Source: Acidobacteriaceae bacterium (GTDB lineage Bacteria; Acidobacteriota; Terriglobia; Terriglobales; Acidobacteriaceae). From it: a stretch of 40,890 bases of DNA. Below are positions 1,986 to 39,836 of the stretch, one piece after another (positions within the stretch are counted from its first letter, which is position 1; the number at the start of each line of letters is the position of its first letter). A model generated the notes under the pieces. It was not told the origin of the DNA. It ran no database searches and saw only the letters and a program-made list of their open reading frames with translations. The translations under genes and the position numbers were made by a program. The stretch covers positions 1 to 40,890 of the forward strand of contig PNAR01000205.1 in the NCBI GenBank assembly GCA_003169715.1, read 5' to 3'.

Positions 1986-4829
1986 ATGCCGCCAGTGTCA
2001 CCACAGTTCTATTACGCTATTGGTCGTATTACCTCCGTAATGTGCACCAAATTGCCCTTACCCATTAACCTGAAGTGGCAATCGGAATTCCGGGAGCCAC
2101 CTATCCTCACCGCCGAAACAACTAAAGGGACCCGCACCGCGTCTGCCCGTGCGTTCATCCATAGCCTCAACATTCTTATTAAGTATGTGCGCCTGTACGG
2201 TTTCGACCATAAGCGCACTACCGGCCAATTTGAAATTACATGGAACGAGTTGCAGCAAGGTCTTCCCAAAGATCGGGATGGAAACTTTCTGCTTGGAGTT
2301 GCGGAAAATCGCCTTCTCCTGGATGGCATTGCTCTCGAGTCCGGACAAGCCGAGCAAAGTTTCGCGAAGTTGCTGACCACCGCCGGCCTGGCGAGCATTC
2401 ATTTTTCCAACCACGTTACCGTTGATGATTTCGCGCAGCTCGTAAAAGCATTCTCGACGGCTGGTTCCAAAGCCCAGGACATCACCAAACAAATCAAAGA
2501 CACTTTTGGAAATAATAAACAGGCCAGCATCAGGATCAACGAAGTGAAGTTCGTTGCGGCCGATCCCGCGACTGGGGATGTCAGTATCGCCGCCCAAATT
2601 GCGGCGCAGTCTCTTGGCCCTGAATTCAAGCAATGGCTAAATGATCCGCAAAAGCTCATGCAGCTAATCGCCGCAGCCGAAGGCGCTCACAACGCAGGCG
2701 CTGGCGGGGGTGGAGGCGGCACCGGACCTAGCATGCCTCCCGGAAGTTTTCCCAACCCATCTCCCGGAGAGCAATCATCCGGCGGCGGAGGTGGTACGGG
2801 GACGGGTACCGGCGGTAACTGGAGCGGCGGCGTAGTTCCCTTGCAAGAGGAAGAAGTCATTCAAGCGATTCGCCTGCTGACCAGGTTCGGCGAAGTGGGC
2901 AGCGATCCTTCCGCGAAAACCGACGCCCTACAGGGCGAAATCAGCAAGACCGACGCCAACACCAAAATTAATCTACAGCTGTTGCTGCAAAGCCTGGCCT
3001 CCACGGTTCCCGCGCAACAGACCGACACGCCTCTTCTAATGAAGGCTGCCGAACACATGGCAATTCGCTTCGCCCTGGAACGCTTCCAAAAAGGTGAAGT
3101 GAAAGTCAACGCGGTCCACCAGATGCTCGAGCACATGAGCCGGCAGATGGACAGCTTGCGCCAGATCCTGCGATTGCAGGAAGACAAAATGAGCAAGGCT
3201 GGCATCCTGGTGGAATCCCACGCCGACATTCTTGATCGAATGTTCTGGGCCGAGGTTCCCGACGCTGGCAAGAAAAGCGTGCTGCTGTCCGACGAAGCGC
3301 CCTGCGTCCCCGCTCGTAACGTACGACAATTCGTAGAGCTCCTGCTCGACCGGGACGAGAAAGAAACAGCTTCGGACATTCTGCGGAACTATGCATCGTG
3401 CCTGAACGCCAAAGATCCTGAGCCTCGCCGCAAGATTGCCACCGGTATCGGTCAACTCGCCGATCTCTTTGCCAGTTCGGATGAAAAACTGCTGGGGGCT
3501 ACTGTTCGCGCCCTCGCCGACGCTCTGGTTAAGGAACCGGATTCGGAGATGCAGAGCCTCTTGAGCGCGGCCTTCGTCCGCATGAGTTCTGAAGCAAGCG
3601 CACAAAAGCGCTATTCCGCGCTAAACGAAGTTTGTGACGCGATGGACACGGTCGCAAAACAGCGTCCTGTACTCGCCGATGATTTGCGTCCGCGCATCGG
3701 TATCGAAAATCGCTTGCCTGAATTTCTCGAAGAAGCGCTCCGTCTGCCGCAAGTTCCGCCTGAGTTGGTCATGGTATTGCGCCGCACATCGCAGGCTGCC
3801 ATTGAGCATCTCGCCGATCGCTTTTTCCGCTGCATGCGTCGTGATGAATGCGACCGCATGGTGAATCTCGTTAAAGATCTGGGACCTCCGGGAATGGCGC
3901 ACTTGCGCGAGATGTTGCGCATGGGGCCGCCACGTCAGGCCTCGTCAGTGATTGGTTTGCTCAGCCGCCTCGATGTTCCAACATTGTTGGAACTGCTGCC
4001 AACCCGCCTGCCCGAGTGGAATCGCTTTTATCACGATTTGGTCGTCCGCCAGATTGCGTATGGCGCCGCTCCAGATCGCGGGCGCTCACTGCTGGAGCTT
4101 CTGGAAATTCTCGATCCGCTGGTGTTGCCACAGGCCCTCGATGAGATTGGCATGAGTGGCGACAGATCGGCAGTTCCGCCGCTGATCGTGATGGCGGAGT
4201 CCGGAGAAACCGAAGGCCGCTCTCCATTGCTTCAACTAAAAGCTGTGGAATCTCTGGGAAGACTGCGTGAAGGCGACTCGATCACGGTTCTTCGAAATCT
4301 GCTCGAAGCGAAGAAAATGTGGAAGTGGATCCATCCGCGCGAATTGAGAATTGCGGCCGCGCAAGCGCTCACCAAGATTGACCCGACTTATAGCAGCAAA
4401 ATTATGGCGGAAAGCGGCTTGGAGCCTGCGGAGCTCGCGGTGGCAGCCCTTGACGCCGCCCCAGCCTGCCCGTGGGTACGGCAGCGGCGATATGAACGCA
4501 TTGCGCTGAGAAAACCGATTTCCGCGACCATTAGCAGTTCATGGGGAAAATCGGGCATCTCGGTTCACGAACTCAGTCTGGGCGGCGGGATGGGCACCAA
4601 GCAAGACAATCTCCGTGTCGGCTCGGAAGCTTCTCTCGATATGAAGGTTGGCATGAGCCACATCCGCGCCGACGTATTGTTGCGCCGCGCCAGGGTGAAT
4701 GAAGTAGGATTCGAAATCGTAAATACCGATCTCGAAAGCCGCTATCGCCTGCGCCGCATTCTGCTCGAAACCATGGGCAACACTCCCGACGAAAAGAAAG
4801 AGGAGTGGAGCGATATCCGGAAGAGCTGA
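1986..4829 (+). CDS. Large multidomain protein: unknown N-terminal domain, Gly-rich linker, HEAT-like helical repeats, C-terminal PilZ (c-di-GMP-binding) domain
   Basis: 947-aa ORF. The C-terminus has the PilZ signature RQRRYERIAL (RxxxR) followed by HELSLGGGMG (D/NxSxxG-like). HEAT/PBS-lyase-like repeats include LLQLKAVESLGRLREGDSITVLRNLLE and RELRIAAAQALTKIDP. A low-complexity GAGGGGGGTGPS...GGGGGTGTGTGG linker lies at about nt 2690-2830. The start is uncertain; an alternative ATG is at 2040. Confidence 0.75.
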   Translation: MPPVSPQFYYAIGRITSVMCTKLPLPINLKWQSEFREPPILTAETTKGTRTASARAFIHSLNILIKYVRLYGFDHKRTTGQFEITWNELQQGLPKDRDGNFLLGVAENRLLLDGIALESGQAEQSFAKLLTTAGLASIHFSNHVTVDDFAQLVKAFSTAGSKAQDITKQIKDTFGNNKQASIRINEVKFVAADPATGDVSIAAQIAAQSLGPEFKQWLNDPQKLMQLIAAAEGAHNAGAGGGGGGTGPSMPPGSFPNPSPGEQSSGGGGGTGTGTGGNWSGGVVPLQEEEVIQAIRLLTRFGEVGSDPSAKTDALQGEISKTDANTKINLQLLLQSLASTVPAQQTDTPLLMKAAEHMAIRFALERFQKGEVKVNAVHQMLEHMSRQMDSLRQILRLQEDKMSKAGILVESHADILDRMFWAEVPDAGKKSVLLSDEAPCVPARNVRQFVELLLDRDEKETASDILRNYASCLNAKDPEPRRKIATGIGQLADLFASSDEKLLGATVRALADALVKEPDSEMQSLLSAAFVRMSSEASAQKRYSALNEVCDAMDTVAKQRPVLADDLRPRIGIENRLPEFLEEALRLPQVPPELVMVLRRTSQAAIEHLADRFFRCMRRDECDRMVNLVKDLGPPGMAHLREMLRMGPPRQASSVIGLLSRLDVPTLLELLPTRLPEWNRFYHDLVVRQIAYGAAPDRGRSLLELLEILDPLVLPQALDEIGMSGDRSAVPPLIVMAESGETEGRSPLLQLKAVESLGRLREGDSITVLRNLLEAKKMWKWIHPRELRIAAAQALTKIDPTYSSKIMAESGLEPAELAVAALDAAPACPWVRQRRYERIALRKPISATISSSWGKSGISVHELSLGGGMGTKQDNLRVGSEASLDMKVGMSHIRADVLLRRARVNEVGFEIVNTDLESRYRLRRILLETMGNTPDEKKEEWSDIRKS

Positions 4830-18978: not shown

Positions 18979-19710
18979 CTAAGCCGCAGTGTGCTGATAG
19001 TAATCGGTCGCCCAAATAGTCTGTTGAGGACAAGCAAAAACCGACACGTAATTTTCTTTCTTGCCCACCAGCCAAAGAATCACGTCCCGATGTTTCGAAG
19101 GATTAGAAACCGCTTTCCCTTTGGATGTGGAGTACTTCGCATAAACAATCTTGAAACCATTTGCGGCAAAACAATCGATCAATCCTTGAGGATTGAATAC
19201 GTGCAATCCATGGCCGTAGTAGCCATTAATCGGCGTGTGTAGCAGGTAATATCCGCCGAGGCGGACCATACGAAAACAATTTTCCAGGCATCGGGCGGTG
19301 TCGAACAGATGTTCCAAGCTTCCAATGTCGATCAATGTTCCGTATTTGTTGTATTCACACTCGGGTATTGGCCGGTTCATGTCATAGCGTAGGTCTGCGT
19401 GATCGTCGAAATAATCTACTGTGGTTGAGGGGTAGCCTTTCGCAACCAAGAACTCCGTGAGAGACATGTAATCGAAGTCTTTTGGCACCGGCCGGGACAA
19501 CTTACCCCGAGCAAAGGCGGTTAGACGACGCATCTTTCCTCCGGAGGCGAGGAACCGTCGTAATCTCGGAATAAACGGATTCGGCGGACGCGGCCCTCTG
19601 CTCTGCGCGTCCTCTATTCCTTGACATCCAAACGTGAGTACTGGAGCCTGCAAAAAGTCGGGTATTGCAAAAATCTCCCTATAAAACGGGAAGTGCCATT
19701 TCAGTACCAT
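18979..19710 (-). CDS. Putative class I SAM-dependent methyltransferase-like protein
   Basis: 243-aa ORF. VLTFGCQG resembles SAM motif I, and LIDIGSLEHLFDTARCLENCFRMVRLGGYYLLHTP resembles motifs post-II/III of Methyltransf_11/23-type enzymes. Weak, motif-level only. Confidence 0.45.
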   Translation of the reverse strand: MVLKWHFPFYREIFAIPDFLQAPVLTFGCQGIEDAQSRGPRPPNPFIPRLRRFLASGGKMRRLTAFARGKLSRPVPKDFDYMSLTEFLVAKGYPSTTVDYFDDHADLRYDMNRPIPECEYNKYGTLIDIGSLEHLFDTARCLENCFRMVRLGGYYLLHTPINGYYGHGLHVFNPQGLIDCFAANGFKIVYAKYSTSKGKAVSNPSKHRDVILWLVGKKENYVSVFACPQQTIWATDYYQHTAA

Positions 19711-23001: not shown

Positions 23002-23769
23002 TCATTGCGGTATTTTGATGGATGTCGCTGCGGCATCGCAGATCTGCGATTTCCTATCCTCGGATAAATGCGATTCCTCCAGAATTCCTCTGGCCACAGC
23101 CGCGGGAAGTGATCCCATCAGCTCTATCGCCACAGCAATCGGTATGTTGTCGTTCCGCAGCAAAGCGATCGTGATGTCAGTGCGAACTTTCCATTTTTGA
23201 TGAATGCAAAGTGCATTGATAAGCTGCGGGTCTGTGGTTCGCCTCGAAAGTTCCCTGATCACCACCCTTTCGGTGAGCCTCGAATTCTGAAGCGCTGCAT
23301 CAATCACTCGCGGTTCGGAGTCGCGCAACAAAGCCCCAGCCACTCGTCCCGAAGCACGACGCGCCAAGGAAAGCTTTTCTCCCAATGATAGTTTGTCCAG
23401 GCGATTGATCAGGCTCTCTTCGGCCGCTACCTTGATATCGGCCGCGATGGTTGGCACTAGCGCTACGCGCATCAGATCAAATGTAAACAGATGACGCAGC
23501 AGTGGCAGCAATACATGACGGGGTGTCTTAGGATGCTCGACCAAAGCCAGCTTCACTTTCCGGCTCTTCATCAAGCCGCTGTTCTTGCTAATCCTCTCCA
23601 GAGCGTCCCGTTCCAGATCCGGACGCTTCAATAAAGCCAGCGCAAGATCGTCGGATAATTCTGTATTGGAAGCGTGTGTTTTGACAGCTTCGACGTCGCC
23701 AGTCTCTCCTCCGCCGGGAGTTTCAGATTTTCTCTCGTCATTTTCGATTAGTTTTCGTTCCACGCTCAA
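23002..23769 (-). CDS. Hypothetical protein with LRV/HEAT-like helical repeats
   Basis: 255-aa ORF convergent with uvrC. Repeats of the type ALLRDSEPRVIDAALQNSRLTERVVIRELS. No enzymatic motif recognised. Confidence 0.5.
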   Translation of the reverse strand: MSVERKLIENDERKSETPGGGETGDVEAVKTHASNTELSDDLALALLKRPDLERDALERISKNSGLMKSRKVKLALVEHPKTPRHVLLPLLRHLFTFDLMRVALVPTIAADIKVAAEESLINRLDKLSLGEKLSLARRASGRVAGALLRDSEPRVIDAALQNSRLTERVVIRELSRRTTDPQLINALCIHQKWKVRTDITIALLRNDNIPIAVAIELMGSLPAAVARGILEESHLSEDRKSQICDAAATSIKIPQ

Positions 23770-32583: not shown

Positions 32584-32835
32584 CTAGACTTCGGCCTGGT
32601 CAATGTAGCACCATCGCCAATCCTCGCCCGGCTCAAAGGATCGAATAATCGGGTGCTTCGTCTTATGAAAATGCTTAGTGGCGTGCTTGTGAACGGAACT
32701 GTCACAGCAACCAACGTGCCCGCACTCGAGGCAAAGGCGCAGGTGTACCCAAGTGGCTCCGATTTTCAAGCAATCCTCGCATCCCTGCGCCGAAGGCGTT
32801 ACTTCGCGGATTGTGTTCAGGTGAGTGCAACTCAT
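32584..32835 (-). CDS. Stand-alone UBP-type zinc-finger protein
   Basis: MSCTHLNTIREV...CEDCLKIGATWVHLRLCLECGHVGCCDSSVHKHATKHFHKTKHPII carries the C/H spacing of zf-UBP domains. The ATG at 32835 has GGGGAGAAAA upstream; the track ORF starts at 32859. Confidence 0.75.
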   Translation of the reverse strand: MSCTHLNTIREVTPSAQGCEDCLKIGATWVHLRLCLECGHVGCCDSSVHKHATKHFHKTKHPIIRSFEPGEDWRWCYIDQAEV

Positions 32836-32950
32836 GATTTTCTCCCCATTAGAAACCACGTCGTTTCAAGAACATATTAGACCAGAGTTTCCGTAGGCTG
32901 GCGATATTCCCGCCTTAGCAATACAAAGCAATCCACTGGATGCGCTTGCG

Positions 32951-33010
32951 TTGACGCCTTTCCATGCACCTTCTATCCTTAAATAGAAGAGGTAGGTTCA
33001 GTGACAACCT
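32951..33010 (+). promoter_or_regulatory. Candidate sigma-70-type promoter with two palindromic operator candidates upstream of the FTR1 operon
   Basis: TTGACG (32951-32956), a 17-nt spacer, TATCCT (32974-32979). Palindrome P1 is CTTCTAT-ccttaa-ATAGAAG (32970-32989) and overlaps the -10 element. Palindrome P2 is AGGTT-cagtgac-AACCT (32994-33010), whose half-sites equal those of the DtxR/IdeR box but with a 7-nt rather than 5-nt spacer. Confidence 0.4.
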
Positions 33011-33057: not shown

Positions 33058-34305
33058 ATGTTACAGGCATTCATCGTAACCTTGCGCGAGGGCGTCGAAG
33101 CTGCCCTGATCGTCGGCATCACGCTAGCCTACCTCACCAAGATAGGCCGGGCTGATCTTCGCAAATATGCCTACTGGGCTCTTGTTTCAGCATTTGTTGC
33201 CAGCATTGGCGTCGCCATCCTCCTTTCTCAGACGCATTTGAATGAGGACGTTTTCGAGGGCTGCGTCATGCTGGCGGCGGCAGCGTTTGTCGTCACCATG
33301 ATCATTTTCATGATGAAGACGGGACGCAAGCTCAAGGGAGAAATTGAAGGCAAACTTGGATCGCTCGCTGGCAAAGGCTCGGCGGTTGGAGTTTTCTTTT
33401 TCGTTTTCTTGATGGTGCTGCGCGAAGGCGCCGAAACAGTATTGATTCTGTCGGCAGTTTCACTGAACTCTACCGAGCTGATGAGCTTTCTGGGAACCCT
33501 CTCGGGCATTTTCGTGGCGGTGTTATTCGGAGTGATGTTCGTTAAGGGAAGTGTTCGCATCAATCTGCAAAAGTTCTTTCGCATTACCAGCGCCATTCTG
33601 TTTTTCGTCGCCGCCCAATTGCTGGTTTCCGGACTGCACGAGTTATCAGAGTACGGAGTGCTTCCCTCTTCCAAGCGCGAGATGGCTCTGATTGGCCCGA
33701 TCGTGCGCAACGATTTCTTTTTCGCGGTAACTATTCTCGCGTTGGCCGCGCTCATGGTTTTGTTGGAGGTGAAGCGCCGGCAACCTGCTTCACTTCCTTC
33801 ATCTGGTGCGGAGCGACGCAAAGCCGCTTGGAGCGCCCGCCGCGAGCAATGGTGGATGAGGTCGGTTTACGCCAGTTCGTTTGTTTTCATTCTGCTCATC
33901 ACTGCGGAGTTTGCTTATACGAAAAGCGTTAGCGCGCTTTCTCCGGCGACCGAAATTCATTTCACAAACGGTCAGGTAAGTATTCCGCTAGCTAAGGTTT
34001 CTGACGGCGACCTTCACCGTTTCGCCGCTCTCGAAAACGGTACGACGATTCGTTTCTGGCTGTACAAAAAACCCGACGGAAAGATCGCCACGGTTTTCGA
34101 CGCCTGCCAGATATGTGGCGGCGTTGGCTTTTACAAAAGCGCGAATGGAGTCGTTTGCAAGAACTGCGCTTCGCCAATTAATGGGCAATCCATCGGAACC
34201 AAGGGCGGTTGTAACCCCGTACCTCTCATCGCGCAGATGACATCGGATGCCGTCATCATCAAGGAGGCGGACATCGCGACCGGCATCAAGATGTTCCAAA
34301 AATAA
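33058..34305 (+). CDS. FTR1/EfeU-type iron permease fused to a DUF2318 (Cys-rich, FetA/Cj1660-like) domain
   Basis: Two REXXE motifs (REGVEA near the N-terminus, REGAET at about aa 122) in a 6-7 TM FTR1 core, then an extra TM. The C-terminal domain reads FDACQICGGVGFYKSANGVVCKNCASPINGQSIGTKGGCNPVPL, the CxxC...CxxC...GGCNP pattern of DUF2318. Confidence 0.8.
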   Translation: MLQAFIVTLREGVEAALIVGITLAYLTKIGRADLRKYAYWALVSAFVASIGVAILLSQTHLNEDVFEGCVMLAAAAFVVTMIIFMMKTGRKLKGEIEGKLGSLAGKGSAVGVFFFVFLMVLREGAETVLILSAVSLNSTELMSFLGTLSGIFVAVLFGVMFVKGSVRINLQKFFRITSAILFFVAAQLLVSGLHELSEYGVLPSSKREMALIGPIVRNDFFFAVTILALAALMVLLEVKRRQPASLPSSGAERRKAAWSARREQWWMRSVYASSFVFILLITAEFAYTKSVSALSPATEIHFTNGQVSIPLAKVSDGDLHRFAALENGTTIRFWLYKKPDGKIATVFDACQICGGVGFYKSANGVVCKNCASPINGQSIGTKGGCNPVPLIAQMTSDAVIIKEADIATGIKMFQK

Positions 34306-35567
34306 TGTTTGTTCGTCTCGTGTATGAATCGTTTCGGCGGCAGAAGCGAAGCAAACTGCTGGCTGGCGCCGCCATTGCTTTAGGCGTGACCGTAGCCACG
34401 GCAATGATTGCCGTTGCCACCGATGTAGGCGACAAAATCAATCGCGAACTGCGCAGTTACGGCGCAAATCTCGTCGTCACCCCCCAGGACGATACTTTGG
34501 ATGTTCAAATCGCCGGAATCAACCTCAAACCACCCAGCGACGGCGCTTACCTGGACGAGGCCGATCTTCCGAAAATCAAAGGCATGTTCTGGCGCAACAA
34601 TATCGTGGGTTTTGCGCCCGTGTTGCCGGTGACCGTCACGGTCAATAAAGGCACCGCAAAGAATGTCACTCTTGTTGGTACATACTTTGCGAAGCGATTG
34701 CGCTTTGGCAACGAGAATTTTGTAACGGGCGTGCGCACAACCTATCCATTGTGGAAAGTTCAAGGCTCATGGCCGGATGACGATTCCCGTGACGTATTGA
34801 TCGGCGAACAGTTGGCTGCGGCTCTGAGAGCAAAGCCCGGAGCGAAAATCAATATCGAGGGAGAGAATCTGCAAGTAACGGGCATTCTTTCAACAGGAAG
34901 CACGGAAGACAACGAAATCGTCGCACCCCTCTCCTTAGCGCAACAGATGCTGGGAAAGCCGGGTGTAGTCCGCAAGGTTTATGTCAGCGCCCTGACCAAG
35001 CCCGAAGACGCATTTGCCCGCCGCGATCCAAAGACACTCAGTCCTGATATGTACGACCGGTGGTATTGCTCTCCCTACGCCCAATCCATCGCCTTTCAGT
35101 TGCAGGAAGCGATTCCACATTCTCACGCCGAGCAAATTCGTCAGGTCGCTCAAACCGAGGGCACGATTCTGACGAGGATCAAAGGCTTGATGCTGCTGGT
35201 CACGCTGGCCGCCCTGTTTGCGTCCGCGCTGGCAGTTTCGGCAGCAATGGCGACAACCGTTTTTGAGCGACGCCGCGAAGTTGGGTTGATGAAGGCTCTT
35301 GGCGCCGGTGGGCTCGCAGTGGCTTCCTTCTTTTTCGCGGAAGCCGCATTATTAGCACTTCTTGGAGGCGCGGCAGGCTTCGCAGGCGGCTCGTTTCTGG
35401 CATACCACGCGGGGCGCTGGATATTCGATTCCCCAATCAACATTCAGCCAGTGCTGCTTCCGCTTATTCTGATTATCGCGGTGATTGTAACTTTTGCGGG
35501 TAGCGCTACCGCCATTCTCCGCGCCGTGAAGTTTGATCCGGTATATGCATTGCGCGGTGAAGGATGA
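34305..35567 (+). CDS. MacB-type (FtsX-family) ABC permease 1 with large periplasmic domain
   Basis: N-terminal TM (KLLAGAAIALGVTVATAMIAV), a periplasmic domain of about 250 aa, and a C-terminal FtsX 3-TM bundle (ERRREVGLMKALGAGG...LRAVKFDPVYALRGE). Its start overlaps the upstream stop (TAATG at 34303-34307). Confidence 0.85.
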   Translation: MFVRLVYESFRRQKRSKLLAGAAIALGVTVATAMIAVATDVGDKINRELRSYGANLVVTPQDDTLDVQIAGINLKPPSDGAYLDEADLPKIKGMFWRNNIVGFAPVLPVTVTVNKGTAKNVTLVGTYFAKRLRFGNENFVTGVRTTYPLWKVQGSWPDDDSRDVLIGEQLAAALRAKPGAKINIEGENLQVTGILSTGSTEDNEIVAPLSLAQQMLGKPGVVRKVYVSALTKPEDAFARRDPKTLSPDMYDRWYCSPYAQSIAFQLQEAIPHSHAEQIRQVAQTEGTILTRIKGLMLLVTLAALFASALAVSAAMATTVFERRREVGLMKALGAGGLAVASFFFAEAALLALLGGAAGFAGGSFLAYHAGRWIFDSPINIQPVLLPLILIIAVIVTFAGSATAILRAVKFDPVYALRGEG

Positions 35568-36715
35568 CGAAACCTCTACCAGGCGGCCGTGCAGGCGCGC
35601 AGCATACCTCAATGTTTTTCCGCATGCTGGTTCGGGCCGCGATTCTCCGTCGCGGCCGCGCGGCATCCGCTTTGCTGGCCATGATCGTCGCAGCGACCGT
35701 CACGACGGCATTGTTGAATCTTTTTGTGGATGTGCAATCTAAGCTGCGCAGAGAATTTCGGAATTACGGCGCCAATGTCGTCGTGATCGCGAAAGACGGA
35801 AAGACACTTCCTCCCGATGCTCTTGCTAAAGTCGAGGCGACGGTTGGCAGGGATCCCCGTGCGAAACAGAGCGTTGCGGTCCCCTTTGCTTACGTCGTGG
35901 CCCGAACCTCCAACGATCAGCCGGTTGTCGTCGCCGGCACCGATCTTTCTGCTGTCCGCAAGCTGAACAATTGGTGGTCAGTAACGGCATGGCCGAAGCA
36001 GCCCGAGGAAGCTCTCCTTGGTGTTCGAGCGTCGGCCATCGTAAATCCGCAGGGAAAGTCTTTCGATCTCACCTTCCACGGGCGCACGATTCATTTGACG
36101 CCCGCGGGCACTGTGGGCACGGGCGCGGACGAAGACAGTCGTATTTATGTATCATTGTCCGATTTCGAAGCTTGGACAGGCGTGCGGGCGTCAACAATCG
36201 AAGTGGATGTTTCCGGCCCGCCTGCTGATGTCAACGCAACGATCGCAAGACTCGCTCAGGTTTTGCCCGACGCCGATGTCCGGCCAGTACGGCAAATCGT
36301 GGAAGCCGAAGCTCGCGTGTTGGGAAAGACAAGGGCGACGTTGTTGGCGGCTTGTATTCTAGTCATCGCCACGGCCGCGCTGTGCGTTCTGGCAACGCTC
36401 ACCGGGTGGGTGCTTGACCGGCGCCGCGATTTCGCGATCATGAAGGCTCTCGGCGCATCGCAGCGGTTTATCAGTGGATTCTTCGCCGCCGAGGCTGCCT
36501 TTCTGGGGGCTTTTGGGGCATTGCTTGGCTTTGGTTTCGGAATCGGAATCGCGGCGTGGATTGGCAGAACTAACTTTCATGCGCCCGTAATGCCCCGATT
36601 CGAGCTGTTTCCAATTGTTTTGCTCGGGTGCATTCTGATTGCGCTGGTCTCCGCGATTGCGCCGATTTCCGCGCTGCGGCGAGTGCAGCCAGCTATGATC
36701 TTAAAAGGTGAATGA
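35564..36715 (+). CDS. MacB-type (FtsX-family) ABC permease 2
   Basis: Same architecture as permease 1 (DRRRDFAIMKALGASQ...LRRVQPAMILKGE). The ATG at 35564 overlaps the upstream stop (ATGA). The alternative ATG at 35612 (MFFRMLVRAAI) parallels the N-terminus of permease 1. Confidence 0.85.
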   Translation: MTKPLPGGRAGAQHTSMFFRMLVRAAILRRGRAASALLAMIVAATVTTALLNLFVDVQSKLRREFRNYGANVVVIAKDGKTLPPDALAKVEATVGRDPRAKQSVAVPFAYVVARTSNDQPVVVAGTDLSAVRKLNNWWSVTAWPKQPEEALLGVRASAIVNPQGKSFDLTFHGRTIHLTPAGTVGTGADEDSRIYVSLSDFEAWTGVRASTIEVDVSGPPADVNATIARLAQVLPDADVRPVRQIVEAEARVLGKTRATLLAACILVIATAALCVLATLTGWVLDRRRDFAIMKALGASQRFISGFFAAEAAFLGAFGALLGFGFGIGIAAWIGRTNFHAPVMPRFELFPIVLLGCILIALVSAIAPISALRRVQPAMILKGE

Positions 36716-36745
36716 AGCCATAAATACGGGGCGGCAGGGAAAGAC

Positions 36746-37972
36746 TTGATTCAGCTCAAACATGTAAGCCGGTCATATCCAGCTCGAGCGGAAGCTGGAG
36801 GGGCTATTCGTGCGCTGGAGGACTTCTCACTCGCCGTTGCGCCGGGCGAGTGGATTGCAATCATGGGCCCGTCGGGATCGGGTAAATCAACGCTTGTGAA
36901 TCTGATCGGCTGCCTTGATCGTCCGACATCCGGTGAAATCTGGATTGACGACCAGAATGTGGCCAGCATCTCCGCGGGCAACTTGAACCGTGTACGCGCG
37001 GAAAAAATCGGATTCATTTTTCAACAGTTCCACCTGATTCCCTACCTCACGGCGGTTGAAAATGTGATGCTGGCGCAATACCTGCACAGCATGACGGACG
37101 AAGAAGAGGCGCTGACGGCTCTTGATCGGGTCGGCCTGAAAGATCGCGCGCATCACGTGCCGTCGCAGCTTTCCGGCGGCGAGCAGCAGCGCGTATGTAT
37201 TGCTCGGGCGCTGATCAACGATCCCAAAATTGTATTAGCCGACGAGCCTACCGGTAACCTCGACGCCGTCAACGAAGAGATTGTGCTTCGTCTCTTGCGC
37301 GAGTTGCATCGCAGCGGGCGCACCATCGTGATGGTCACGCACGATCCGGTAGTGGCACGATTGGCCGATCGCCGGATTGAGCTGCATCATGGCAAGATCG
37401 CCGCACAGGAAGTTTTTGCCATGGCGGATGAAGAGCAATTCGACGAGGTACTCGAGGAACTTTGGGCGCTCGAGGAAAATGGGCAAATCGCCGAAACCGG
37501 CCGCATGGAAGTTCACGGGGCTCTACCGGTGAGCATTGCCATCGAAAAGATGACCGCCCTGGGGCTGGTCACGACGAGCGTGCACAACGCTCCAATCCCT
37601 GCGTCTAAGCCTTTTATTAATCCGTGCCACGATGCTCTCAAGCCGACTGGCGTTTCCACCGGCGAAGGAAGCATGATTGTCGAGCTGACCCTTCGGGGTC
37701 GCCAGCGCGCCGCCGATGTAATTCGCCGTCACCGTCTTGCCGAACGCCTGTTTACTGATAGCCTGGCTCTCGATAGCGAATCGGAAATTGAGCAGCAAGC
37801 CTGCAAATTCGAGCACATACTTTCGCCAGAAGCTACCGACAAGATATGTACATTCCTGGGACATCCGCGCACATGCCCGCACGGGGCACTGATTCCACCG
37901 GGGCCGTGTTGCGGTCGAAACGTTGCGGAATTAGCCGGTACCTTCCGAGCCAAATCGGATCGCGTTAGCTAA
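36746..37972 (+). CDS. MacB/LolD-type ABC ATPase fused to a C-terminal DtxR/IdeR-like metal-dependent regulator module
   Basis: TTG start. Walker A GPSGSGKST, Q-loop FQQFHL, signature LSGGEQQRVCIARAL, Walker B VLADEPTGNLD, H-loop VTHD (aa 1-220). From aa 226 the sequence reads MADEEQFDEVLEELWALEENGQIAE...IEKMTALGLV...VIRRHRLAERLFTDSLALDSESEIEQQACKFEHILSPEATDKICTFLGHPRTCPHGALIP. This parallels DtxR RKHRLAERLLTDIIGLD...HDEACRWEHVMS. Confidence 0.85.
   Translation: MIQLKHVSRSYPARAEAGGAIRALEDFSLAVAPGEWIAIMGPSGSGKSTLVNLIGCLDRPTSGEIWIDDQNVASISAGNLNRVRAEKIGFIFQQFHLIPYLTAVENVMLAQYLHSMTDEEEALTALDRVGLKDRAHHVPSQLSGGEQQRVCIARALINDPKIVLADEPTGNLDAVNEEIVLRLLRELHRSGRTIVMVTHDPVVARLADRRIELHHGKIAAQEVFAMADEEQFDEVLEELWALEENGQIAETGRMEVHGALPVSIAIEKMTALGLVTTSVHNAPIPASKPFINPCHDALKPTGVSTGEGSMIVELTLRGRQRAADVIRRHRLAERLFTDSLALDSESEIEQQACKFEHILSPEATDKICTFLGHPRTCPHGALIPPGPCCGRNVAELAGTFRAKSDRVS
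37421..37915 (+). other. DtxR-like module (winged-helix-like segment plus metal-binding/dimerisation domain) within the ABC ATPase ORF, with a possible internal in-frame start
   Basis: An in-frame ATG at 37421 is preceded by AGGAAG (37407-37412) at 8-nt spacing. No stop codon separates it from the ATPase domain. Confidence 0.6.
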
Positions 37973-37973
37973 C

Positions 37974-38798
37974 GTGACGACCCCTCGCCGCCCTGCCATC
38001 GGAGTGTTCGACTCGGGCTTTGGTGGCCTTACAGTACTTAAAGCTTTACTTGAGCTTATCCCGCATTCGGATTACCTCTACTTCGGTGACACAGCCCGCC
38101 TTCCTTACGGCTCGAAGTCTGCCGAAACCGTCGCGAGGTACGCCATCGAAGCAACACGTTACCTCGAGCAGCATGGCGCTCAACTATTAGTTGTCGCCTG
38201 CAACACGGCGACCGCACTCGCTCTGGACAAGATCGAAGCGCGGTCCGGGGTTCCAGTAGTTGGGGTAATAGAACCCGGTGCGGAAAGCGCCTCCAAAGAG
38301 AGTAAGAACCGGAAGGTGGTCGTCATCGGCACTGAAGCCACCGTCAGCAGCCACGCTTACCGCAGAGCACTTGAGCAACGGGGAATCCAGGCGAAAGAGA
38401 AAGCCTGCCCTTTGCTGGTTCCGTTGGTTGAAGAAGGTTGGATTGACCACAATGTGACCGAGCAAATCGCTCGCATCTATCTCAACGAAGCGTTTGCCGA
38501 TGGATTTGAAAATGGAGATACCCTCGTTCTGGGATGCACGCACTATCCGCTGATAAGACGCGTGCTTCGGAAAGTGGCTCCTGATCACGTCGCGATTGTT
38601 GACTCGGCGCAATCCACGGCCCAAGTCGTGAAAGATATGCTGGGAAAATCCCTCTCTGAGGCAACCGAGGACGAGCGCCGCAAAATGCCGCGGCTGAAGT
38701 TTTTTGCTACGGATTCAGTGGAGAAATTCCGAACTCTTGGAGCGCGTTTCCTGGGACGTGAAATCGAGGACGTTCACCACGTGGATCTGAAGGAATAG
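37974..38798 (+). CDS. murI: Glutamate racemase
   Basis: IGVFDSGFGGLTVLKAL, LLVVACNTAT and LVLGCTHYPL (the two catalytic Cys motifs). GTG start. Confidence 0.9.
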   Translation: MTTPRRPAIGVFDSGFGGLTVLKALLELIPHSDYLYFGDTARLPYGSKSAETVARYAIEATRYLEQHGAQLLVVACNTATALALDKIEARSGVPVVGVIEPGAESASKESKNRKVVVIGTEATVSSHAYRRALEQRGIQAKEKACPLLVPLVEEGWIDHNVTEQIARIYLNEAFADGFENGDTLVLGCTHYPLIRRVLRKVAPDHVAIVDSAQSTAQVVKDMLGKSLSEATEDERRKMPRLKFFATDSVEKFRTLGARFLGREIEDVHHVDLKE

Positions 38799-38822: not shown

Positions 38823-39836
38823 TCAGTACAGATTGAAACTGACTTCGACGCTGATCTCTACCGCGACCGGTTTTCCATCCTTTATGGCAGGTTTAAATCT
38901 CCATTGCTTTACCGCTTCAATGGCTTTTTCGTCCAGACCGAGGCCGACACTGCGAGAAACTGTTATGTTGCGCGGAAGCCCATCGGGACCGACGATTAAA
39001 GAAACTATCGAAGTTCCTGAATACTTCGCTTTGCGGGCCTCTTCAGAATACTCAGGCGAAGGATCGTAAAGGACGCTGGGCGCGCTCACTCCTCCTCCAA
39101 CGTGATATGCGCCTCCACCAGTGCCACCGCCATGTCCTTCTCCGACTCCGGGCCCGGAGCCGACGCCCACTCCGCCCAAGGAACCGGAACCAATTCCACC
39201 GCCGGATCCTGTTCCGTTGGAAGGAGGACCGGAGGGCAGCTTAGACATTGGAATTCCCAGATTGGGCAAGTTATTCATCGCCATCTTGATCTGCGGAGGA
39301 ACAACAACTGTAGGCACAACCGGAAGCTTCGGATGATCGTTCCGAACTATAACCGCCGGAGGCGTGATCTGCTCCATTGCCAGCTTGGGAAGTTTTCCTT
39401 TTGACGCCTGGAATTTGTCTCTGTCGCCACCCCCGCCACCGCCACCGGCAAGAGTCTTGGAGGGCTTCAGAACCGGAATGTCGTCAGGAGCGATGATTGT
39501 CGTCACTACGGATTGCTTCGGGGTCTCCTTCACTATCCTGCGAGCCCAAAGAGTGGCTCCAACGATAAGCGCAAACAAAATGATATGGGTTATGGTCGAA
39601 CCAAGCGCGCCATTTTTCTTGTTGTCGTAAAAGCCCCAGATGTCTTTAACCGGAATCGGCTTCGAGGTCAGTACAAGCGGTGGCAGTTTTTTGGGAAAAA
39701 AGAAATCATTCAAATTCTGAGTGAGAGACTTGAACAGCGATTGCTCAAAAGTGTTCGGAGGCAGAAGAAAACTCGGCACCGGAGTGGAAGCCGAGGAGAC
39801 GCTGGCGGGTTGCGATTCGATATCGAGGCTTGCCAT
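38823..39836 (-). CDS. TonB-family energy transducer-like protein with Gly-rich spacer
   Basis: C-terminal TonB_C fold motif PEYSEEARKAKYSGTSIVSLIVGPDGLPRNITVSRSVGLGLDEKAIEAVKQWRFKPAIKDGKPV. A single TM (ITHIILFALIVGATLWA) lies at about aa 82-98, and the spacers are Gly-rich. Confidence 0.8.
   Translation of the reverse strand: MASLDIESQPASVSSASTPVPSFLLPPNTFEQSLFKSLTQNLNDFFFPKKLPPLVLTSKPIPVKDIWGFYDNKKNGALGSTITHIILFALIVGATLWARRIVKETPKQSVVTTIIAPDDIPVLKPSKTLAGGGGGGGDRDKFQASKGKLPKLAMEQITPPAVIVRNDHPKLPVVPTVVVPPQIKMAMNNLPNLGIPMSKLPSGPPSNGTGSGGGIGSGSLGGVGVGSGPGVGEGHGGGTGGGAYHVGGGVSAPSVLYDPSPEYSEEARKAKYSGTSIVSLIVGPDGLPRNITVSRSVGLGLDEKAIEAVKQWRFKPAIKDGKPVAVEISVEVSFNLY

Follow-up and report, generated by a model that had tools for sequence, protein, structure and literature searches.

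A reduced Fet-type operon from an Acidobacteriaceae bacterium as a candidate iron importer with a DtxR-like tail on its ABC ATPase

The 40,890-nucleotide (nt) contig PNAR01000205.1 of an Acidobacteriaceae bacterium (assembly GCA_003169715.1), analyzed at its full length and called the window here, contains a compact operon of four genes at positions 33058 to 37972 that very probably encodes a Fet-type metal uptake system, with iron as the most likely metal. The first gene encodes an FTR1-type permease with a Cys-rich FtrD-like domain, the second and third encode MacB-type permeases, and the fourth encodes an ATP-binding cassette (ABC) ATPase fused to a module resembling the metal regulator DtxR. 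The favored interpretation, to which a probability of roughly 50% is assigned, is that of a reduced, P19-independent, FTR1-type iron importer of the Fet class that is assisted by an ABC system and whose ATPase is restrained when Fe2+ fills the DtxR-like tail. The role in iron uptake is derived from characterized relatives, the fetA, fetB, fetC, and fetD genes of Campylobacter jejuni, each of which is required for growth under iron limitation (PMC10783030, PMC6083913).

All four genes are located on the + strand. The open reading frames (ORFs) have lengths of 415 amino acids (aa) (33058-34305), 420 aa (34305-35567), 383 aa (35564-36715), and 408 aa (36746-37972), and separate gene calling on the source contig, a scaffold from a wood metagenome, returns the identical four genes. 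Genes 1 and 2 meet in the sequence TAATG at 34303-34307, genes 2 and 3 meet in ATGA at 35564-35567, and gene 4 begins with a TTG start codon after a gap of 30 nt. No terminator-like site is present between the four genes. An earlier sequence-only reading of the window had described four codirectional genes with these junctions; its coordinates are exact, and the Pfam assignments agree with its domain calls for all four proteins. The same order of four genes is seen again in >60 loci of different species, and the arrangement is therefore not a product of chance.

Gene 1 (33058..34305, + strand) encodes a FetA-type protein with an FTR1 permease domain, an eighth transmembrane (TM) helix, and a Cys-rich FtrD-like domain, as judged from Pfam, colinearity with classic FetA, and 25 homologs. 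Pfam recognizes FTR1 at aa 1-200 (E=7e-38) and FtrD-like (PF10080, formerly DUF2318) at aa 314-413 (E=1e-28), the two families that had been named for this protein from the sequence alone. The REGxE motifs, a profile alignment to FetM with hhalign, and the helix pattern of an AlphaFold2 (AF2) model delimit an FTR1-like membrane domain of seven helices at aa 1-239 (33058..33774), which contains the motifs REGVE (33085-33099) and REGAE (33421-33435). This domain is followed at aa 240-292 (33775..33933) by an Arg/Lys-rich, predicted cytoplasmic loop (AERRK...) and the eighth TM helix, a topology deduced from charge count and secondary structure. An AERRK-like loop is also kept in classic FetA. 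The β-rich FtrD-like domain (33997..34296) carries the motif CxxC-x13-CxxC-x14-C at aa 350-385 (34105-34212), and the same Cys motif has been published for the C. jejuni protein 1651/FetA. Both REGxE motifs and all five Cys residues are invariant in the 25 diverse gene 1-type homologs. Hydropathy and AF2 secondary structure indicate that seven helices are followed by a cytoplasmic loop, one more helix, and a β-rich C-terminal domain, and together with the Arg/Lys-rich loop at residues 240-270, they lead to a provisional placement of the Cys-rich domain in the periplasm. Foldseek searches with the gene 1 model give repeated weak matches to Rieske [2Fe-2S] domains (E 0.1-0.6), a hint that this domain may be a redox or metal center; the gene 1 sequence itself has no match in the PDB.

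Gene 1 occupies the operon position of FetA, directly before the counterparts of FetB, FetC, and FetD. Its residues 77-415 align with residues 72-419 of a Ruminococcus FetA (E=2e-33), and the two proteins are colinear beyond the FtrD-like domain. Profile-profile comparison of gene 1-type membrane domains with the N termini of classic FetA proteins in hhalign gives 98.1% (E=7e-14) over 253 colinear columns and, with larger profiles (25 versus 6 sequences, including FetA of Escherichia coli), 96.9% (E=2e-10). Controls with a reversed profile and with the TM region of an unrelated FtsX protein reach ≤1% (E 0.05-0.3). The gene 1 domain matches the FTR1 domain of FetM at 99.6-99.8%, and the N-terminal part of classic FetA matches FetM at 10-48%. 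Based on its colinearity with classic FetA and its operon position, gene 1 is, as far as sequence can tell, a FetA ortholog that retains both REGxE permease motifs rather than a newly formed FetM-FetA fusion. The sequence-only reading had described an FTR1::DUF2318 fusion; the occurrence of both domains in one polypeptide stands, but the idea of a new joining falls with the colinearity of classic FetA (97-98% in hhalign). On the simplest reading, the FetA family as a whole joins an FTR1-like domain to an FtrD-like domain through an eighth TM helix, and gene 1 would represent the FetA form whose permease is predicted to be still functional. One gene 1-type homolog from an acidobacterial metagenome-assembled genome (MAG) (locus L052, 6114-7535) shows a YHS-like C-terminal extension (CGMKV...YYFC), and C. 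jejuni FetA reportedly has such a YHS tail as an additional domain (PMC10783030).

Gene 2 (34305..35567, + strand) encodes a FetB-like MacB-type permease with Pfam matches to MacB_PCD and FtsX and shares its order with FetB of classic loci at 35-39% identity. Gene 3 (35564..36715, + strand) encodes a second MacB-type permease, FetC-like by its order in classic loci, with a match to FtsX and a weak match to MacB_PCD. Both permeases had been called as MacB type from the sequence, and the Pfam matches confirm this. Hydropathy shows an arrangement of 1+3 TM helices for both proteins, and the layout of type VII (MacB-like) ABC systems is present: an FtsX-fold permease in which a large periplasmic domain separates TM1 from TM2, together with a nucleotide-binding domain (NBD) of the MacB/LolD type. 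In the proposed mechanism, iron would cross the inner membrane via the FTR1 domain of gene 1, and the periplasmic Cys-rich domain would serve as a redox or metal hand-off center in place of the missing P19 and thioredoxin partners. A heterodimer of the two permeases with two copies of the ATPase, as in LolCDE, would use ATP to drive a conformational step in the periplasm that makes iron available to the channel.

Rather than acting by mechanotransduction, the ABC part might export a reductant or another small molecule to the periplasm and in this way power the Cys-rich domain. For C. jejuni, Richardson-Sanchez et al. propose that reducing power comes from FetBCD through FetA (PMC10783030). The two CxxC pairs of the Cys-rich domain could cycle as disulfides, which would suit such a role. 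This explanation is nonetheless unlikely: the permeases show a MacB/FtsX architecture with an NBD of the MacB/LolD type, and the locus has no thioredoxin partner for an electron relay. The solved members of the type VII ABC systems act on periplasmic or membrane-embedded substrates and do not perform transport across the bilayer.

Gene 4 (36746..37972, + strand) encodes a FetD-like ABC ATPase fused to a DtxR-like module, as seen with Pfam, NCBIfam, and an AF2 model. Pfam gives ABC_tran (E=8e-37), and the NCBIfam models closest to the ATPase are MacB, LolD, and FtsE. The AF2 model, with a mean predicted local distance difference test (pLDDT) score of 79, contains a canonical NBD of the MacB/LolD/MJ0796 type at aa 1-221 (36746..37408) with intact Walker A, signature, Walker B, and H-loop motifs, for which Foldseek finds MJ0796, MacB, and LolD at template-modeling scores of 0.86-0.90. 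None of the catalytic motifs varies in an alignment of divergent fused ATPases. A linker of ∼3 residues in the AF2 model connects the NBD to the tail. The first part of the tail, at aa 224-314 (37415..37687), is a degenerate winged-helix region equivalent to DtxR domain 1 according to profile alignment and AF2 secondary structure. It consists of a helix (224-244), a short helix (262-271), and a β hairpin (275-279 and 310-314), at the tip of which the model shows a disordered 31-aa insert in the wing (37583-37672), Terriglobales specific by the tabulated insert lengths. The second part (37688..37912), with three helices within residues 316-370, comprises the metal-binding and dimerization domain Fe_dep_repr_C (PF02742, aa 315-384, E=2e-24) and a conserved HPxxCPHGxxIPPGxCC motif (aa 373-389).

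The Pfam model Fe_dep_repress for the helix-turn-helix domain gives no match in gene 4. A profile of the tail aligns to residues ∼9-135 of DtxR/IdeR (E=6e-24) and thus spans both the winged-helix and the metal/dimerization domains. By this alignment, the tail is predicted to correspond to the first two domains of DtxR, with the SH3-like domain 3 missing. The DtxR domains proposed earlier for gene 4 are accordingly found by Pfam for the C-terminal half, not for the N-terminal half, and by the profile for both.

Conservation of the metal ligands was counted in 50 full-length fused homologs. The primary-site equivalents C353, E356, and H357 are 100% conserved. The equivalent of Met10, E234, is Glu in 35 and His in 15 sequences, and the ancillary site retains H329 in 94% and E333 in 100%; the equivalent of H98, E349, is Glu, His, or Asp in 48/50. 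The residues H373, C377, H379, C388, and C389 of the family-specific HPxxCPHGxxIPPGxCC motif are conserved to 96-100%. Canonical IdeR has SPYG at the position of CPHG in the fused family, and DtxR presumably has SPFG there and only a single Cys. With these ligands, the metal sites of the tail look functional by prediction, and a metal-regulator module on the ATPase, as read earlier from the sequence, is borne out by the DtxR/IdeR match and the conserved ligands.

Iron sensing is not the only role conceivable for such a tail, as it could be a constitutive dimerization or scaffold element or an acceptor for cytoplasmic Fe2+ at the channel exit, with Cys/His sites that hold a structural metal such as Zn. 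The HPxxCPHGxxIPPGxCC cluster fits this proposal, as canonical DtxR/IdeR lack it and it has the appearance of a structural site for Zn or Fe. The Cys/His cluster also outlasts the canonical ligands in some clusters of homologs, where these are lost and the former is retained, and the tail is dispensable in operons of the Granulicella type. A scaffold, however, would not need the canonical regulatory ligands (the C102, E105, H106, H79, and E83 equivalents) that are strictly conserved in the 50 homologs. Domain 2 of the DtxR family couples metal occupancy to dimer geometry in DtxR and IdeR, which counts further against a passive element, and this role is regarded as rather doubtful.

The reading as a metal-responsive tail leads to the following regulatory step. 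Two DtxR-like tails would pair beneath the ATPase dimer, and cytoplasmic Fe2+ or a related divalent metal in the tail sites would restrain the ATPase. Since the ligands are conserved, it is plausible that the motor subunit senses cytoplasmic metal. Such a feedback would be fast and posttranslational, like trans-inhibition in MetNI and ModBC, and in most relatives, it would be layered on transcriptional control by the Fur family. The odds that Fe2+ bound to the tail restrains the ATPase in this way are put at slightly below even, by analogy to those transporters.

The winged helix also raises the question of DNA binding. As a membrane-tethered transcription factor, the metal-loaded tail would bind DNA (e.g., AGGTT-N7-AACCT) and repress the operon, making the ATPase self-regulating. 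The module retains the whole winged-helix fold of DtxR domain 1, and the window and its closest relatives have a palindrome with IdeR/DtxR-like half-sites at the place of the Fur-like box described below. The winged-helix region shows a mean net charge of −11, compared to −4 for DtxR residues 1-64, and carries the disordered 31-aa insert in its wing. The equivalent of the base-contact residue Q43 is Ile, Leu, Arg, Met, or Lys, and the equivalent of Arg50 is lost. DNA binding by the tail is therefore unlikely, given an acidic winged helix without the base-contact residue of DtxR. In all members, the DtxR-like module is fused to an ABC NBD and never occurs as a free-standing transcription factor with a DtxR-type operator, and most fused loci carry an operator of the Fur type, not the DtxR type.

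The upstream region shows a promoter-like site at 32951..32979 (+ strand, consensus scan) with a −35 element TTGACG, a 17-nt spacer, and a −10 element TATCCT, and the TTGAC...TATCCT pair is kept in upstream alignments of related loci. Directly 3′ of this conserved −10 element, 53/63 related loci carry a Fur-like palindrome of 19 bp, which occurs as GAAATTGAAATTCATTTTC in 28 loci and as variants resembling GTTGCAACTCAGTTGCAAC in 25 loci, with intermediates connecting both types. The box GAAATTGAAATTCATTTTC matches 14/19 positions of the Fur consensus of E. coli and differs at 5/19, with a shared 6-6-1-6 hexamer layout. The upstream box would thus belong to a Fur-family repressor, to judge from this likeness. 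Further copies of a Fur-like box were sought for a regulon, and none are found in the window or in the 20-kb loci.

At the position where relatives carry the Fur-like box, the window contains the imperfect palindrome AGGTT-N7-AACCT (32994..33010, + strand). This candidate for a conserved DtxR-type operator is rejected: it is absent from 62 other loci, its spacing exceeds that of the IdeR box by 2-3 nt and varies by one nucleotide between close relatives, and the pattern occurs at chance frequency within the window. With this, a DNA-binding role of the tail becomes very unlikely, and the tail is read further as a sensor acting on the ATPase.

The identity of the metal and the direction of transport can be questioned as well, since the system might handle Mn, Cu, Pb, or Zn or serve detoxification or export instead of uptake. 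The FTR1 family includes noniron members, such as lead permeases. The Fur-family boxes of the relatives may be Zur, Mur, or Nur sites, and the Glu or His at the equivalent of DtxR position 10 recalls Mn-sensing relatives. A module of DUF2318, FtsX, and ABC proteins is also found among copper and heavy-metal resistance genes on the Pelobacter propionicus plasmid pPRO1 (locus L087, 5971-8301), where a short protein of 154 aa with DUF2318 only is encoded together with one FtsX permease and one ABC ATPase; the surrounding genes specify a CsoR-like regulator, HMA-domain proteins, and a heavy-metal P-type ATPase. Against this, the two invariant REGxE motifs are typical of iron permeases, the closest characterized relatives are iron uptake systems, and the upstream box of the relatives follows the Fur consensus in sequence and layout. 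The Cys at the C102 equivalent is typical of the Fe-responsive regulators DtxR and IdeR and not of MntR. Another metal or an export function is thus considered quite unlikely, and uptake of iron is retained as the most likely function.

The distribution of the operon was surveyed in 80 loci on contigs from one genome per species, which were found with the alignment of divergent fused ATPases and in which six domains were mapped by blastp onto all ORFs. An exhaustive search of representatives is dominated by fragments and tandem ABC proteins and recovers seven divergent fused clusters. The closest relatives of genes 1 and 4, with 93-97% identity, are encoded in MAGs of Terriglobales (Acidobacteriota) from soil, peat, and wood metagenomes among the matches listed. 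Each search returns at least 8000 candidates, and all matches listed share the two-domain architectures under generic names such as "Fe-S-containing protein," "high-affinity iron transporter," and "ATP-binding cassette domain-containing protein." With thousands of relatives bearing only generic names, the architecture is common in nature yet uncharacterized. These metagenomic relatives are spread across the Acidobacteriota, and the architecture is not rare.

Three classes of loci can be distinguished. Classic Fet clusters of Synergistaceae, Ruminococcus, Clostridia, and Treponema encode FTR1/FetM, P19 (PF10634), and FetA in separate genes, followed downstream of FetA by two permeases, a plain ATPase of ∼230 aa, and a flavin mononucleotide (FMN)-binding or other small gene. 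The E. coli plasmid locus pEC14_114 shows the same classic cluster with a TlpA-type reductase. A second class, represented by Granulicella aggregans, Edaphobacter, and others, comprises acidobacterial operons in which an unfused ATPase accompanies a gene 1-type protein and two permeases. The third class, with the DtxR-tailed ATPase, is found in Terriglobales, Acidoferrales, Bryobacteraceae, Thermoanaerobaculia, one Eisenbacteria bin, and one "Udaeobacter" bin, all of them MAGs. A neighborhood survey had been suggested along with the sequence-only reading; it shows the four-gene order to be common across the Acidobacteriota and the tail to be optional. In a neighbor-joining tree of the NBDs, fused and plain forms are interleaved, which suggests that the DtxR fusion is old with later losses or was gained repeatedly. 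A Rosetta-stone test for a stand-alone DtxR gene beside the unfused ATPases gave no candidate at E<1e-5.

In tblastn searches with two verified P19 proteins, P19 is found only in the classic loci L069, L072, L077, and L078 and is absent from the 40.9-kb window and, within ±10 kb, from all acidobacterial loci. Domain scans find no cupredoxin or thioredoxin anywhere in the window, so that the operon indeed lacks these partners in and beside it, as had been read from the sequence. Neither the window nor the flanks of related loci contain an oxidase or cupredoxin partner of the Fet3p, EfeO/EfeB, or FtrB type. The region 3′ of the operon contains no FetE/F-like thioredoxin/TlpA or FMN-binding gene, neither here, where murI and tonB follow, nor in the sampled acidobacterial lineages. 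Because both P19 and the thioredoxin/FMN partner are missing, the locus is classified as a variant of the Fet cluster and not as a plain member.

Elsewhere, the sampled operons are flanked by unrelated genes, by a gene for a secretin-like protein, or by a small gene of the GBBH-like_N/DUF971 family. The last (PF06155) lies 3′ of the ATPase gene and codirectional with it in Acidoferrales-type lineages, next to DtxR-tailed and plain ATPases alike (L038 11687-12082, L065 10758-11171, and L073 10721-11107), and may encode a lineage-specific accessory component. Divergently upstream, Acidoferrales-type loci carry a gene on the − strand for a secretin-domain protein of 1100-1300 aa with FG-GAP and Big_2 repeats (L038 2112-6086 and L065 2845-6138). 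The operons of L048 (labeled Candidatus Udaeobacter) and L063 (Rhodanobacteraceae) nest among acidobacterial sequences within bins of other phyla, which points to misbinning or horizontal transfer.

Several observations weigh against the interpretation as an iron importer with a metal-restrained ATPase. The assignment of the acidobacterial members is wholly computational, and the role of FetBCD is unsettled even in C. jejuni (PMC10783030). The homology of FetA and FTR1 is remote: Pfam's FTR1 model has no match in classic FetA, an HMM (hidden Markov model) of the membrane part alone is significant for only 1/5 classic FetA proteins (E=3e-5, background of 7654 ORFs), and E. coli FetA by itself gives no significant match to the FTR1-type domain of gene 1. 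As Pfam and single-profile searches mostly fail, the claim rests on the controlled profile-profile comparison. The AF2 model of gene 1 comes from a shallow alignment and has a low-confidence pLDDT of 61, and its secondary structure alone was used for the topology. The DtxR tail is missing from several lineages with an otherwise identical operon, such as Granulicella and Edaphobacter; lost or never gained there, it is dispensable. Degenerate ligands occur in some divergent clusters (P0252, P0259, and P0277), and metal specificity cannot be read from the ligands, with Glu or His instead of Met at position 10 and an extra Cys/His cluster. The heavy-metal resistance cluster of Pelobacter shows that the module of DUF2318, FtsX, and ABC proteins is not inherently iron specific. 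Lastly, the Fur-like box of the related loci is absent from the promoter of this window and of its closest relatives.

The flanks of the operon contain genes with a more limited conservation. Directly upstream and divergent lies a gene for a zf-UBP (PF02148) zinc-finger protein of 91 aa (window 32584-32859, − strand), whose position is kept in the closest relatives, L082 and L083, and not in more distant loci. The glutamate racemase gene murI (37974-38798) begins 2 nt past the stop codon of gene 4 and, given this distance and no terminator-like site in between, may be cotranscribed with the operon. A tonB gene (38823-39836) converges on murI. MurI and TonB were considered as components of the system and rejected; the pair adjoins the operon in only about half of the Terriglobales loci, and the adjacency is therefore regarded as local synteny. 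Rfam finds no riboswitch or other RNA in the leader or the window. Farther away, an ORF of 947 aa (1986-4829, + strand) with a Gly-rich low-complexity stretch has no Pfam or NCBIfam match; its C-terminal end appears PilZ-like by eye, with the pattern RxxxR...(D/N)xSxxG (RQRRYER...ELSLGGG). Two ORFs of ∼250 aa (18979-19710 and 23002-23769, − strand) belong to no Pfam or NCBIfam family.

Campylobacter, Yersinia, and plasmid-bearing E. coli and Salmonella require the Fet/P19 system to scavenge iron. The roles of FetA and FetBCD are explicitly described as open (PMC10783030), and the acidobacterial version consists of exactly those four parts, with a FetA that carries permease motifs. This suggests that FetA descends from an FTR1 channel and may still act beside one, that the FTR1 channel has its conserved core partner in the ABC module, and that the ATPase activity is important enough in metal homeostasis to have gained its own metal sensor. 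A more far-reaching proposal, advanced only tentatively, describes a self-contained importer of four proteins in which an FTR1 channel with a periplasmic Fe-S or redox domain would be gated or fed by the type VII ABC system and shut off by Fe2+ through the tail, and in which the FetA of pathogens would be a decayed permease. If this proposal is correct, the operon would provide the first case of metal-dependent trans-inhibition in an ABC system and the first of a DtxR domain recruited away from DNA binding for the control of a transporter. The four genes offer a minimal system for the role of a MacB-type ABC system in iron uptake, and the tail of gene 4 is a candidate for a new mode of posttranslational transporter control. 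In soil, peat, and wood metagenomes, the operon of Terriglobales is very abundant, which makes it a probable major route by which iron is acquired in acidic soils.

A review of the Acidobacteria notes merely that FTR1 genes exist, and no published description of an ATPase with such a tail, of a FetA that bears REGxE, or of the operon without P19 was found in the searchable literature, in line with the earlier statement that no characterized example of this architecture is known. The closest known system is FetMP-FetABCDEF of C. jejuni (cj1658-cj1665/CJJ81176_1649-1656), which is homologous to FetMP-Flc of Yersinia pestis and to the plasmid-encoded FetMP-Fls of Salmonella and E. coli. This kinship with the C. 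jejuni ftr1-p19/cj1660-65 locus had been recognized in the sequence-only reading and is upheld by the same gene order and by 30-40% identity to FetA, FetB, FetC, and FetD of loci from Firmicutes, Synergistota, and Treponema that also carry FetM and P19. In both systems, the gene for a FetA-like protein with the CxxC-x13-CxxC-x14/15-C domain precedes those for two FtsX/MacB permeases and a LolD-like ATPase, in matching order, and the arrangement of FetB, FetC, and FetD after FetA is that of L069, L078, and E. coli pEC14_114. In contrast to the classic clusters, the operon has no separate gene for FetM, P19/FetP, thioredoxin, TlpA, or an FMN-binding protein. Gene 1 keeps both REGxE motifs, which classic FetA lacks, and gene 4 comprises 408 aa with a DtxR-like tail, compared to 226-249 aa without a tail in classic FetD.

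Compared to DtxR and IdeR (PDB 1fx7, 7b24, and 1bi0), gene 4 keeps the equivalents of H79, E83, C102, E105, and H106. Its module differs in the fusion to an ABC ATPase, the missing SH3-like domain 3, the acidic winged helix with loss of the base-contact Gln, the 31-aa insert in the wing, the replacement of Met10 by Glu or His, and the added HPxxCPHG...CC cluster. The systems FtrABCD of Bordetella and Brucella and EfeUOB likewise combine an FTR1-family permease bearing REXXE with an extracytoplasmic redox or metal-binding partner. Unlike these, the locus has no P19 (FtrA), cupredoxin (FtrB), polyferredoxin (FtrD proper), EfeO, or EfeB and instead contains an ABC system.

For the proposed control step, MetNI of E. 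coli and ModBC of Methanosarcina acetivorans are the nearest models. In both transporters, a C-terminal dimerizing domain binds the cytoplasmic substrate and holds the NBDs apart (review PMC10710835). The tail of gene 4 lies in the same position after the NBD and has a dimerization-competent fold. This fold is DtxR-like and not an ACT-like C2 or TOBE domain, the transporter is of type VII and not of type I, and in the regulation hypothesized here, the ligand would cross the partner FTR1 channel and not the ABC transporter itself. With LolCDE, MacB, and FtsEX, the operon shares two different FtsX-type permeases with a periplasmic MacB_PCD domain and an NBD of the LolD/MacB type, which implies a stoichiometry of one copy of each permease and two copies of the ATPase. 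It differs from them in that an FTR1-type channel is the partner and the NBD carries a putative metal-sensor tail.

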